Positions 4,373-39,381 of a stretch of 64,000 bases of DNA are shown in pieces. The translations under genes were made by a program, and so were the position numbers. The notes beneath the pieces are model-generated. The model was not told where the DNA came from, made no database searches, and saw nothing but the letters and a program-made list of their open reading frames with translations. The DNA lies in assembly GCF_003991155.1 (NCBI RefSeq), contig NZ_CP031293.1; one strand, given 5' to 3'. The DNA is from Escherichia coli. Lineage in GTDB: Bacteria > Pseudomonadota > Gammaproteobacteria > Enterobacterales > Enterobacteriaceae. Position 1 is the first letter of the stretch. Each line of letters begins with the position of its first letter.

Positions 4373-5034
4373 GCGCCTTCTCCCTGTACCTTAATCAATG
4401 TGAGGTTTCCGCAGAACACTGCTCCGGTATCGATATACATTTGGTTGGCAAACTTGAGTGGTTTCACTGCTGGCGTATGACCAAAGATGAACGTGTCCGC
4501 TCCCTTGATTTCTTTTACGATCCCGTCTTGTGAGTTGCTGATTCGTTCGCGGTTCCAGATTACCTGCTGATGAACAACTGGCTTTCCAAACTCGTATTCG
4601 TCACAAGGATAATCGGCGTGGCAGATAACATATTTTTTACCTTTGCTCACCAGTTCAATGATTAACGAAAGTTCATCTGCTTTATGGGCAAGAGCTTTAG
4701 CCAGAATTTCTTTGTCGTAATCGAGATTAAAGAACCAGCCACCGCCATTAAACAGCCAGTGATTGACGTTTCCACGCTCTGATAAGCCATCAATCATCAT
4801 TTGCTCATGGTTTCCACGTACAGCTCTGAACCAGGGGAATGTGATTAATTCCAGGCATTCGACGTTCTCTGTACCGCGATCGACCAAATCGCCAACCGAG
4901 ATAAGCAGGTCTTTTTTGATGTCGAATCCTATCGTCTCCAGTTTTTTCATCAGGTTCGTGTAGCATCCGTGCAGATCGCCAACTACCCAAATATTCCGGT
5001 ATTTGCTGCCATCAATTCTTTCGTAATAGCGCAT
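4369..5034 (-). CDS. ninI: Ser/Thr protein phosphatase (NinI)
   Basis: [25 protein letters not shown]... GDLVDRG, GNHE metallophosphatase motifs; start taken at internal Met matching lambda PPase. Confidence 0.85.
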
Positions 5035-8252: not shown

Positions 8253-9629
8253 TCATACGTCCGCCCCTTGTGCATATCGTCTGCCACGCGCAGCAGGCGC
8301 ATTTGATGCTGTGCAAATCTGTCTGGCTTCATCCTGGTCACATGCAACAAAGTGTCCGTTACAGAACCGCTGGTAAACCGTACCAAGTGAGCCAAAACGG
8401 TTTTTCGTCACGATGATTTCAGCAAATGGCGCGGCGCTACTGTTCTCGTCATATACCGCTTCCCGATAGAGCATGATGATTGAGTCTGCGTCCTGCTCAA
8501 TGCTTCCTGAATCACGCAAATCTGCGTTTGTCGGGCGTTTGTTTGGTCGCTTCTCAACATCGCGCGAAAGCTGACTCAGGGAGATAACAGGCGTTTTCAG
8601 GTCTTTCGCCATCGCCTTCAGGCTTCCGGAGATGTGAGCAATTGCGAGGTCGTTGCGGTCTGCTTTCGGCTTCTCAATCAGGCCAAGATAATCCGCCATG
8701 ATTAGAGACAGGTTTGGATTTTCCTGTTTATGCCGTTCTGCGATTGAGCGTATTTCTTCGACCGATAACCGCGAGGCATCGACTACCCATACATCCAAAT
8801 CTGCAAGCTGACTCATGCCGTTAGCAACACGCGCCCAGCCTTCGTCATCCATCGATGCAGGATTTCGCAGTACGCTAACCGACATCCTCCCGGCGTTGGC
8901 AATGCTTCGCTCTGCAATCTGCAATGCGCTCATTTCCATCGAGAAAATCAACACTCCGCGCCGGACGTCAGAACCGGGAATAACGCGGCTTGCAACGCCT
9001 TCAGCAATCTTCAGCGCCAGCTCGGTTTTCCCCATACCAGGACGAGCGGCGATAATCACCAGGTCTTCCGCGTTCATCCCTCCGGTGATGGCGTCAAGTT
9101 CTTCGATTCCGGTCTTCAGGGTATCTGACTCTTCTCCGTTCCTCAGACGCCTGTCAAGCGTGTCAGTGTAGTCAGTGATGATTTCCCCTAACCGTACAGG
9201 TTTAACCTCGTCACGGGGCTTTCTGATGGCTGAAAGACGCTTTACAAGCTCGTCCATCGCCTGACTCGATGTATCGATGGTTCCGCTCTGAATTGGTTCA
9301 CGCATTTCATCCATGATTTCCAGCACCAGACGGCGGTGATAGTTATCCGCGACCATTCCGGCATATCCTTTCAGGTTTGCGGCACTCGGGCAGTTTTTGC
9401 TGGTCATCAGGATTGACGTGAAATGCTCCTCTCCGCACGCCTCGGCAACCATCAGCGCGTCGATTAGGTTTCTGTTTCTCGCCTGCTTGCGGATAACCTC
9501 GAAGGCTTTCCGGTAGAGCGGAATTGAAAACGCTTCCGGCTCCAGTGTTGCCAGAACGTCGCTGGCGGTTGGAGTTAATCCACCAATCAGCAGACCGCCG
9601 ATAACGCTCGCTTCGATATCCTGTCTCAT
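8253..9629 (-). CDS. Replicative DNA helicase, DnaB family (phage P-gene position)
   Basis: Walker A GMGKTE, DnaB C-terminal motifs ([23 protein letters not shown]). Confidence 0.85.
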
Positions 9630-10573
9630 GCAATCCCCCTGTCTGCAAACTTCCCTTCCCGTACTCCCGTTAACGAATCTTCCCTCAGCAGGTAATCAAA
9701 ATCTGCCGTCCATCCCGTGTCGTTGTCTCCGAAGTAAAACGGCTTGGCCTGATGCACAAACGCCCTGACATACGCTCTGAAACCGTCCACGTTTGGCGTT
9801 TTCAGTTGCGGGATGATTTTCTTCAGGCGGCGTTTGCGTTTCTCGTTGACCGCAACAGCGTGTGGCAGTCTGTCACCGACTTCGGTGTTGTAAGCGTTCA
9901 GGAAGGATTCGTAGTCGATTCGTTCTGCCTTGCGACGTTCAGGTTTAACCTGCCCATCGCCTCCCCCATTGGGGGGTAGGGGGGTATTATTTATATTCTT
10001 GTTAATACCTTCTTGTTCATGATGTGCGGTTGTTTGTGCGGCTTCATGTGCGCTTTCATGTGCGGCATGTACGCTGAATGCCGCGCCATTACTGGCTTCA
10101 TCATGTGCGGCATCATGTGCGGTTGTTTGTGCGGCTTCATGTGCGGGTGAACTGTCCATTTTTTGAGCATATTCATGGTAATTTGTGATGGTTATCACAC
10201 GACCTTTTTGCTTCTCCCCATCAATGGAGATCATCCCCTCTTTCACAAAAACCTGAAGCATCCGCTCAACCTGATCACGGCTTGCCGGCTTGCCATGCCT
10301 GTCGCATAACTGAAGACCTAAATCAGCTGCTGTCACAACCAGTTGACCGGGTTGCAGATGCCATTCATGACCTTTGAAATTCGCTTTGTATGGCTTTCTG
10401 GCGGCATTCAGGAGAAGGTTTTCCCACAGGGTGCGAAGATAAACATCTTTCGCCCATGACTGTTTCAGAATGCTCCGGTACAACGGAATGTAACCAGTTT
10501 TCTGGTTCTCCATCCTGTTGCTCCTGCGCTCGTGTGCGGCGCTGAAATCGTAGATTTTTGCTGTATTGCTCAT
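9626..10573 (-). CDS. Replication initiator (O-like replisome organiser)
   Basis: Position between cII-side genes and helicase; contains internal nucleotide iterons; start overlaps helicase-side gene boundary. Confidence 0.65.
10022..10145. repeat. Iteron cluster (putative phage origin) inside the O-like gene
   Basis: 31-bp perfect direct repeat ATGTGCGGTTGTTTGTGCGGCTTCATGTGCG at 10022-10052 and 10115-10145 plus several TCATGTGCGG units; adjacent AT-rich tract at 9985-10010. Confidence 0.5.
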
Positions 10574-10575
10574 AA

Positions 10576-10848
10576 CTACCTGCCTTGACGAAAGACCTTA
10601 AGAACATCGTTAAACTGACTTACGGATATGTCTTCTTTGAGAAGCTTTTCCAGAAATGCGTTTGGAATGAACGTATATCCCTCCTCTTTTGGTAGAGACG
10701 AGAGCAACGCCCTCGCCTCAGCCTTCAGAAGCTCAGTTCTGGCAACTTTCACAAAAGAGATTTGAGTTCTTTCATCAATGGAACGAAGGAAGCGCAAACG
10801 CTTAGCTTCTTTGTGTGTATCAGGTGGATTAAAGCCTTTGTTTCGCAT
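10576..10848 (-). CDS. Hypothetical protein between cII and O (90 aa)
   Basis: MRNKGFNPPDTHKEAKRLRFLRSIDERTQ...; GAGG RBS; stop abuts O start. Confidence 0.5.
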   Translation of the reverse strand: MRNKGFNPPDTHKEAKRLRFLRSIDERTQISFVKVARTELLKAEARALLSSLPKEEGYTFIPNAFLEKLLKEDISVSQFNDVLKVFRQGR

Positions 10849-10870
10849 ATAATTACCTCGCTGGATGTTG

Positions 10871-11164
10871 TTAAAATTCCATTTGTATTTGATCAGAACG
10901 CTCGGTTGCCGCCGGGCGTTTTTTATTGGTGAGAATCGAAGCAACTTGTCGTGCCAATCGAGCCATATCGTCGTCAACGACGCCCCATTCAAGAACAGCA
11001 AGCAGCATTGAGAACTTTGGAATCCAGTCCCTCTTCCACCTGCTGATCTGCGACTTATCAACTCCCACAGCTTCCGCTGTCTTCTCAGTTCCAAGCATTG
11101 CGATTTTGTTAAGCAACGCACTCTCGATTCGTAGAGCCTCGTTGCGTTTGTTTGCACGAACCAT
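10871..11164 (-). CDS. cII: Transcriptional activator CII
   Basis: MVRANKRNEALRIESALLNKIAMLGTEKTAEAVGVDKSQISRWKRDWIPKFSMLLAVLEWGVVDDDMARLARQVA..., near-identical to lambda CII as recalled. Confidence 0.9.
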   Translation of the reverse strand: MVRANKRNEALRIESALLNKIAMLGTEKTAEAVGVDKSQISRWKRDWIPKFSMLLAVLEWGVVDDDMARLARQVASILTNKKRPAATERSDQIQMEF

Positions 11165-11221
11165 ATGTAAGTATTTCCTTAACAAATAAGAAGTTATGCG
11201 CATCAACTTATGCGCGTTGTA

Positions 11222-11266
11222 TTCCCGCATTTCGGCGGGAATGAGGACCATGACTGTTAAAGAGCA
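11222..11266 (-). promoter_or_regulatory. nutR (boxA GCTCTTTAAC + boxB hairpin)
   Basis: On minus strand boxA at 11256-11265 then boxB TCCCGC-CGAAAT-GCGGGA at 11222-11241, between cro and cII. Confidence 0.55.
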
Positions 11267-37974: not shown

Positions 37975-39381
37975 TTAATCCAGCCATTCGGTATGGAACA
38001 CACCTTCTTTATCAATACGCTTATAAGTATGCGCACCAAAATAGTCACGCTGTGCCTGGATCAGGTTCGCAGGCAGAACAGCAGCACGGTAGCTGTCGTA
38101 ATAGGCAACCGCTGCGGAGAAGGTCGGAACCGGAATACCGTTCTGTACTGCATAAGCAACGACATCACGCAGCGCCTGCTGGTAGTCATCGGCAATTTGC
38201 TTGAAGTACGGAGCCAGCAGCAGGTTAGCGATCTGCGGATTTTCGGCATAAGCATCGGTGATTTTCTGCAGGAACTGCGCACGGATGATGCAGCCAGCAC
38301 GGAAAATCTTCGCGATTTCGCCGTAGTTCAGATCCCAGTTGTACTCTTCAGACGCAGCACGCAGCTGAGAGAAGCCCTGGGCGTAAGAAACGATTTTGCC
38401 CAGATACAGCGCACGACGAACTTTTTCGATGAACTCAGCCTTGTCGCCTGCTGGCTGTGCTTGCGGACCAGAGAGAACTTTAGATGCGGCAACACGCTGA
38501 TCTTTCAGAGAAGAGATATAACGTGCAAACACAGACTCGGTAATCAGCGACAGCGGTTCGCCGAGATCCAGCGCGCTCTGGCTGGTCCATTTACCGGTAC
38601 CTTTGTTAGCCGCTTCATCCAGGATCACATCAACCAGGTAGTTACCGTCTTCATCTTTTTTGGTGAAGATATCTTTGGTGATGTCGATCAGGTAACTGCT
38701 CAGTTCACCGTTATTCCACTCGGTAAAGGTCTGCGCCAGTTCTTCGTTGGTGAGGTTCAGGCCACCTTTAAGCAGAGAATAGGCTTCAGCAATCAGTTGC
38801 ATATCACCGTATTCGATACCGTTGTGAACCATCTTCACATAATGGCCTGCGCCATCGGCACCAATATAGGTAACGCATGGCTCCCCGTCTTCAGCTACTG
38901 CGGCGATTTTGGTCAGGATTGGTGCAACCAGTTCATAGGCTTCTTTCTGCCCACCAGGCATAATAGAAGGACCTTTCAGCGCGCCTTCTTCACCACCGGA
39001 GACACCGGTACCAATGAAGTTAAAGCCTTCGGCAGAAAGTTCACGGTTACGACGAATGGTGTCCTGGAAGAAGGTATTGCCACCATCAATGATGATGTCA
39101 CCTTTATCGAGATATGGTTTGAGGGAATCAATAGCAGCATCCGTGCCTGCACCTGCTTTCACCATTAACAGGATGCGACGAGGCGTTTCCAGAGATTCAA
39201 CAAACTCTTTCACCGTATAGTAAGGAACCAGTTTCTTGCCTGGATTTTCGGCAATCACTTCTTCCGTCTTTTCACGGGAACGGTTGAAAATAGAGACGGT
39301 ATAACCACGGCTTTCGATGTTGAGCGCAAGGTTGCGCCCCATCACTGCCATACCGACGACGCCGATCTGTTGCTTTGACAT
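37975..39381 (-). CDS. gnd: 6-phosphogluconate dehydrogenase (decarboxylating)
   Basis: E. coli Gnd, 468 aa. Confidence 0.9.

Follow-up and report, generated by a model that had tools for sequence, protein, structure and literature searches.

The 90-aa open reading frame that lies between cII and the replication initiator of a lambdoid prophage in Escherichia coli, hereafter gene X, is a genuine, conserved small protein gene under protein-level purifying selection. Its linkage points to the replication module of the phage, and its C-terminal part reads recognisably as a diverged copy of the start of the lambda-type O origin-binding domain. We put the chance somewhat short of even (about 45%) that X serves the initiation of replication as an accessory or modulating factor whose translation is coupled to that of the initiator, a role read from gene order and sequence comparison. 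The window, that is, the whole stretch of DNA that was analysed, comprises 64,000 nucleotides, and positions refer to it unless another source is named.

The original prediction described a tightly packed 90-aa reading frame between cII and the initiator, with its own GAGG ribosome-binding site, 22 bp to cII and a stop abutting the O start. Measurement confirms this arrangement and adds the strand, which had been left unstated. The gene and its surroundings are as follows.

10576 to 10848, minus strand: gene X, a coding sequence for 90 aa including the TAG stop, phrog_2519 family (open reading frame, profile match, frame-specific purifying selection)
10856 to 10859, minus strand: GAGG Shine-Dalgarno sequence of X, 7 nt 5' of its ATG
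10871 to 11164, minus strand: lambda-type cII, 97 aa, upstream neighbour of X (Pfam Phage_CII, E = 5e-48; phrog_191)
9626 to 10573, minus strand: O-like replication initiator, 315 aa (Phage_rep_O, E = 3.4e-15; phrog_345)
8253 to 9629, minus strand: DnaB-like replicative helicase, 458 aa (DnaB_C, E = 9e-78, and DnaB N-terminal domain; phrog_19)

The 90 codons of X run from an ATG at 10848-10846 to a TAG at 10578-10576. The TAA stop of cII (10873-10871) is 22 nt upstream of the X ATG, and the ATG of the O-like gene (10573) follows 2 nt past the X stop, with the O Shine-Dalgarno sequence, AAGGCAGG, sitting within the final codons of X. The helicase gene in turn overlaps the O stop by 4 nt. Farther upstream of cII are cro, a PR-like promoter at 11516-11489 on the minus strand and the divergent cI gene. 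The terminator scan finds no minus-strand terminator-like site between cII and X, in agreement with the predicted co-transcription from PR. In lambda, cII (38360-38653) is followed by O at 38686 across a 32-nt gap that holds no ORF, so that the claim of direct succession in lambda also stands. This region belongs to a lambdoid prophage of mosaic make-up, in which the cI-to-helicase block shares 98% identity with phages CUS-3, JEP4 and Gally. The GenBank record of CUS-3 (CP000711; locus L001, 2850-3146) leaves the X region without annotation. The same record starts cII at an upstream ATG to give 126 aa, compared with 97 aa from the lambda-like start, and the long cII ORF of the CUS-3 type is also present in the window (10871-11251).

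A profile search, proposed in the original prediction as a check, yields a full-length match of X to the phrog_2519 HMM (E = 7.5e-57; residues 1-90 on positions 1-90 of 90). The authors of the Kapi1 record gave X the same family label, together with a CDD Phage_rep_O motif. Homologues of 86-93 aa, down to about 50% identity, occur in E. coli, Salmonella, Scandinavium and metagenomes, and the stop position is kept within 3 codons over this range. The GGAG/GAGG element followed by (A/T)AATTATATG at the X start is kept in all diverged loci. In eight diverged X coding sequences, synonymous sites are saturated (pS 0.52-0.88), pN is 0.10-0.40 and dN/dS, where computable, is 0.04-0.22. Pooled pN/pS is 0.35 in the annotated frame versus 1.07 and 1.56 in the other two. 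Constraint is alike in codons 9-30, 31-53 and 54-90 (pN/pS 0.32-0.38, with pS 0.73-0.81 over codons 9-90), and synonymous change is reduced in codons 1-8 (pS 0.42). Ten residues never vary among 24 sequences, which come from two families of bacteria. At residue 50, the window allele has Ser (ALLSSLP), as against Pro (ALLPSLP) in almost all other copies; the exact window allele is also found in three IMG/VR contigs (L012-L014).

The family is narrow, with 14 proteins among 1.84 billion representatives matching the X profile at E ≤ 0.001. X is present in 57 phage records, 48 of them Stx2a-converting phages, in CUS-3-like P22-type phages, and in 277 of 5,426 complete E. coli genomes (at least 80% coverage), where it is annotated as 'hypothetical protein'. 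No relative is found among GTDB representative genomes, and all occurrences of the family come from (pro)phage-bearing assemblies, IMG/VR or metagenomes. In the E. coli variants P0020, P0025, P0022, P0014 and P0033, X residues 1-52 are joined to the last ~70 helicase residues, or cII is joined to the X C-terminus. These variants look like deletion scars in decaying prophages from which the initiator and most of the helicase have been removed. Two independent assemblies, L008 and L009, both end at locus position 4718, ~380 nt into the O-like gene, a shared end that probably reflects iteron repeats or a mosaic joint. In related prophages, BstA_C, P63C and HigB-toxin genes stand beside the repressor (L009 1552-2457, L093 1509-2456 and L098 1816-2103) as candidate defence or toxin cargo.

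In 91 of 91 tabulated loci of sufficient length, an O-like gene comes directly after X, with a DnaB-like helicase gene next in line; these loci were drawn from 80 IMG/VR contigs together with phage records and metagenomic contigs, and only loci extending far enough were counted. Neither lambda P nor the lambda O C-terminal domain occurs in any of the 91. X copies that share at least 97% identity have O N-terminal domains that are at least 98% identical, and their cII is either 97-100% or 40-43% identical. Because the O N-terminus remains constant while cII varies, the recombination joint lies in the conserved oop region that separates cII from X. The loci of Xenorhabdus and Providencia have X, a Phage_rep_O gene and a helicase but lack cII; in Providencia, the helicase slot is held by a Toprim_2+AAA_25 primase-helicase. 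Since adjacency to O is constant and cII is exchanged or absent, X is a module partner of the initiator and the helicase and not of the lysis-lysogeny genes. The original prediction had proposed an early host-takeover or regulatory factor and a test of the lysis-lysogeny decision; the linkage points to the replication module instead. The X stop and the O start lie 2 nt apart in the window; in diverged loci, the two overlap, by either 4 or 8 nt. This geometry is the usual arrangement for translational coupling, and coupling of X to the initiator is predicted from it.

The partners of X are diverse. The O proteins paired with X fall into at least four N-terminal and three C-terminal types, and the helicases are only 31-37% mutually identical. 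Such variety speaks against a contact specific to the type of any of these partners, and no single constant partner is evident. Furthermore, many similar modules of O and a DnaB-type helicase lack X and carry unrelated small ORFs (P22 orf48, HK97 gp53) or none, so that X is not a core replication factor. In the Stx2a phage LC487996 (L004 4846-5840), as well as in L018, L050, L054 and others, the DnaB-like helicase has a ~330-aa in-frame insertion. This insertion carries LAGLIDADG/homing-endonuclease domains, is intein-like, recurs in many Stx2a-converting phages and related contigs, and is absent from the window helicase.

Within X, the segment that relates it to the initiator family lies near the C-terminus.

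10585 to 10689, minus strand: X residues 54-88, the core, homologous to the opening ~35 positions of the origin-binding domain of lambda-type O (PF04492, TIGR01610, hhalign, shuffle)

The core reads EEGYTFIPNAFLEKLLKEDISVSQFNDVLKVFRQ. X of the window scores 14.9 bits against PF04492 (E = 0.038, positions 6-39 of 95), which misses the Pfam gathering cut-off of 28.7 bits for Phage_rep_O, and matches phrog_678 with E = 0.008. Among 18 X family members, 16 match PF04492 (best E = 5.2e-5) and 10 match TIGR01610. Comparison with four lambda-type O N-termini by hhalign places X 54-88 on O 24-58 (probability 70%, E = 4e-5). A column-shuffle of the core against lambda-type O gives z = 11.2, with 0 of 500 shuffles at the observed score. 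In lambda O itself, the counterpart is residues 25-59, with the shared pattern G-Y/F...N..L......L...QF..L.. and a strand and two helices in the same order, namely the first strand, helix 1 and helix 2 of the origin-binding domain. In contrast to Phage_rep_O proteins, X has only about one third of the domain. It has no recognition helix, wing, iteron linker or C-terminal helicase/loader-recruiting domain, and the protein ends at residue 90. A recent duplication of the adjoining O gene is ruled out as the source of X, the core giving a shuffle z of 0.1 against the N-terminus of the window's own O, which belongs to another subtype.

The origin iterons, TCATGTGCGG(C/T), are located at 10016-10147 inside the O-like gene, in 4-5 copies at 12-nt multiples, and encode a repetitive HEAAQTTAH linker. 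One extra copy with one mismatch (TCGTGTGCGGC) is found at 10530-10540, near the 5' end of O. No iteron or initiator-binding site is present inside X (10576-10848). Because the recognition helix, the wing, the C-terminal domain and iterons are all absent, X cannot serve as an initiator itself. The original prediction had named a fragment or N-terminal extension of the initiator as the contrary outcome. This holds in so far as residues 54-88 are initiator-derived, but X is neither a decaying fragment nor an extension of the adjoining O, being separately conserved under purifying selection.

AF2 predicts X to be a soluble, helical protein, with a mean pLDDT of 78 from 12 sequences and 83 from 24. 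Helices are predicted at residues 63-71 and 76-84/87, and the models differ in the N-terminal half, which forms either a hairpin (10-28 and 32-49) or one long helix (11-49). The X model has no significant fold match in PDB or BFVD, and a PDB sequence search with X returns only a chance match (E = 0.46).

X is the first cistron of a phage replication module consisting of X, the O-like initiator and an SF4 helicase. On the preferred reading, it would be read rightward from PR, downstream of cII, and its translation would be coupled to that of the initiator, so that a small helical protein is produced at a constant ratio to O. The binding partner of such a protein could be part of the complex of initiator and helicase, or else a host factor whose usual contact is the N-terminal segment of O. 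This reading is weakened because the P22 and HK97 modules work without X and because X is paired with several O types and distant helicases. A rival idea is that X is an early accessory factor unrelated to replication, acting in host takeover, in anti-defence or as a lysis-lysogeny regulator, and that it merely occupies a variable position in the PR operon. In its favour, different lambdoid phages have unrelated small ORFs between oop and O, as is typical of accessory genes, X is dispensable for O/DnaB-type modules in general, and it adjoins cII and overlaps the promoter of oop, the RNA directed against cII. However, such an accessory gene fits poorly with strict adjacency to the initiator and a start/stop overlap that are maintained across Enterobacteriaceae and Morganellaceae, even without cII. 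Nor does it fit with the co-segregation of X with the O N-terminus while cII is exchanged, or with a core that comes from an initiator domain. PADLOC-DB returns no match to X at E up to 1, a weak point since this library holds defence and not anti-defence proteins. We regard an unrelated accessory role as unlikely, with a modest chance of being right.

The strand opposite X carries signals of its own.

10848 to 10853, plus strand: TATAAT, the -10 element of pO, overlapping the X start codon (alignment with lambda and with X loci)
10860 to 10927, plus strand: oop-like antisense RNA, inferred to start at ~10860 (terminator-like site, fold, alignment with lambda oop and with five other loci)

The candidate -35 element of pO, TGGATT at 10825-10830 on the plus strand, is weak (3/6), and the promoter scan does not call pO for this reason. 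In lambda, the -10 element of pO, CATAAT, likewise lies over the O ATG. No diverged X locus departs from ATATAAT or from the 15-20 bases that follow it. The oop-like RNA ends in a terminator with a 12-bp G+C-rich hairpin and a T run (10895-10922), antisense to the 3' end of cII. This hairpin is identical to that of lambda, and the stretch leading back from it to ~10880 nearly matches lambda oop. The predicted RNA folds at -21 kcal/mol (z -2.8), and its 5' end would fall ~11 nt short of that of lambda oop. The identification rests on the alignment with lambda because an Rfam scan of 9500-12500 matches no family. The N-terminus of the O-like protein, encoded at 10544-10573 on the minus strand, is also lambda-like (MTNTAKILNF in lambda), and the DNA at the O start resembles the lambda pO region (tttttgctgtattgctCATAAC versus tttttgctgtatttgtCATAAT). 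Lambda O has a known N-terminal ClpX recognition signal; the lambda-like O start of the window could be a vestigial second pO, or such a signal could have been conserved.

Both ends of X are thus partly conserved at the DNA level, by pO over codons 1-8 and by the O Shine-Dalgarno sequence in the last codons. The low synonymous change in codons 1-8 and part of the conservation of the MRNK start can be attributed to the promoter. These features would also be expected if X were a relic leader ORF, the 5' remnant of a displaced initiator gene, with roles only in cis (as the site of pO and in delivering ribosomes to O) and a functionless peptide. The homology of the core to the start of lambda-type O fits such an origin, and the X start, GGAG-N-AATTATATG, parallels that of lambda O, GGAGTCATTATG, with the -10 element of pO over the ATG. 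A pure leader, however, would not keep its amino-acid sequence while synonymous sites saturate, and in X protein-level selection extends along the whole gene outside the first eight codons. The ten invariant residues and the conserved length and stop position tell against it in the same way. A functionless leader is therefore improbable.

That X is an N-terminal extension of O, joined to it by programmed frameshifting or readthrough or split from it by a sequencing error, is suggested by the 2-nt spacing and the O-like segment, but we give it almost no credence: the TAG and the two-ORF structure recur throughout the 277 genomes and 57 phage records; the varying frame offset of X and O (2-nt gap, 4-nt and 8-nt overlaps) leaves no conserved frameshift geometry; O has its own Shine-Dalgarno sequence and a complete lambda-like N-terminus; and no protein longer than 164 aa carries X among the 1.84 billion representatives, barring one chance match to a repetitive 1,975-aa protein. 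A full-length initiator carrying X is likewise found neither with the full profile against those representatives nor with a C-terminal core profile against 5.8 billion proteins, and an X extension of the initiator in related phages is rejected on the same searches.

Searching with the C-terminal 40 residues of X retrieves short forms of 59-72 aa from Proteus, Providencia, Xenorhabdus and Klebsiella. Short X corresponds to residues 32-90 of long X (hhalign 99.9%), long X 33-93 aligning with short X 2-62. It lies directly 5' of a Phage_rep_O gene, with an 8-nt overlap, and a DnaB-type helicase gene follows (Toprim_2+AAA_25 in Providencia). Kinship of the short-X leader (MSNV...) with the lambda O leader (MTNT...) is not supported (z 0.25). 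The part of X that the short forms lack is its head.

10756 to 10848, minus strand: X residues 1-31, N-terminal head missing from short forms, probably derived from an orf48/DUF2740-like upstream ORF (moderate support)

In Proteus prophages (L098/L099, 3832-4008) and metagenomic contigs (L106, 2163-2330, and L107), a separate ORF of 55-58 aa is located between the oop region and short X, which it overlaps by 8 nt. The ORFs of 55 and 58 aa, hereafter ORF55 and ORF58, are clear homologues of each other (E = 2e-15), and TATAAT overlaps their start on the opposite strand just as in X (L106, L098). ORF55 of L106 (MKNKFNPSAVHKNNLRD...) aligns M1-to-M1 with X 1-35 (MRNKGFNPPDTHKEAKR...) in hhalign (E = 8e-4, probability 25%), and shuffling gives z = 5.6 for Proteus ORF58 against X(1-32). 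ORF58 in turn compares with DUF2740, the family of P22 orf48, at z = 5.05, with a sub-threshold Pfam match (E = 0.018). X(1-32) against DUF2740 yields z = 3.9 (p = 0.002) by column-shuffle. Direct hhalign of X with DUF2740 reaches a probability of only 1.4-13%, and the full profile-profile comparison, at 1.4%, is not significant. Against Pfam DUF2740 (cut-off 27 bits), X 1-55 has no match at E up to 10, and neither do 18 family members at E up to 1. The kinship of the head with DUF2740 is kept as a lead only, on account of the bridging ORF55/58. With this moderate support, the 90-aa X of E. coli and Salmonella phages is probably a fusion of an orf48-like head and a short-X body, and P22 orf48, ORF55/58 and the X head would then be versions of one leader ORF. 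As judged from sequence, X is a member of phrog_2519, is not an initiator and is not demonstrably a DUF2740 protein.

The slot of X has a history in lambdoid phages. A general layout of cII-oop-'orf'-O-P, with P22 orf48 and HK97 gp53 in the 'orf' position, was described by Hayes et al. 2012 (PMC3349717). X fits this layout, being a small ORF that lies downstream of cII with the oop/pO region on one side and the O-like gene on the other, and mEp213 and Emek have orf48- or gp53-type ORFs in the same slot. One close counterpart is P22 orf48 (DUF2740, phrog_1913), which is the first ORF after cII/c1 and oop, overlaps an O-like gene that is followed by a DnaB-like helicase gene, and has the -10 element of pO over its start region. 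X residues 9-26 align with orf48 10-27 (HK..R.RFL.S), and ORF55/58 bridges the two. However, orf48 is 48 aa long and has no O-like core, whereas X has an extra body of ~59 aa. HK97 gp53 (phrog_1331) occupies the same slot, between cII and the O-like gp54, in the same kind of replication module; a homology of gp53 to X was rejected (hhalign E = 0.74).

The slot itself is already known, as is X in the form of a hypothetical protein in many records, once with a Phage_rep_O motif. The literature search retrieved no paper mentioning DUF2740 or phrog_2519, and the searched passages of the Eru paper, which deals with replication modules of Stx phages, contain no discussion of the X ORF. No published description was found of the linkage analysis, of the short forms, of the lambda-type O origin of the core or of the probable fusion with an orf48-like head.

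Regulators that are truncated paralogues of larger proteins include the 'microProteins' Id and LITTLE ZIPPER and the short pi isoforms of the plasmid R6K initiator. X resembles them in that it retains part of a larger DNA-binding protein without the DNA-contacting elements and is encoded beside the full-length protein. It differs in being a separate gene and not an internal-start isoform, and in being paired with initiators of different N-terminal types. A broader and more speculative idea, unlikely as a whole, is that X represents a class of initiator-derived microproteins in phages with their own SF4 helicase. A long-kept fragment of the O domain would then act as a co-translated subunit that tunes assembly of the origin complex or helicase recruitment, or that diverts a host factor, and the long form would have arisen by fusion with an orf48-type leader.

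If X is inert or a generic accessory protein, the finding is an ordinary one. The location of the oop promoter in the first codons of X and of the O ribosome-binding site in the last means that naive deletions of X would disturb cII control and initiator expression. Lambda and P22 are textbook replication systems, and to our knowledge a function has been assigned to none of the small ORFs that lie between oop and the initiator. The results on X provide a concrete hypothesis and grounds for an annotation better than 'hypothetical protein'. If the microprotein class and the leader fusion are real, they would also give P22 orf48 its first functional context.
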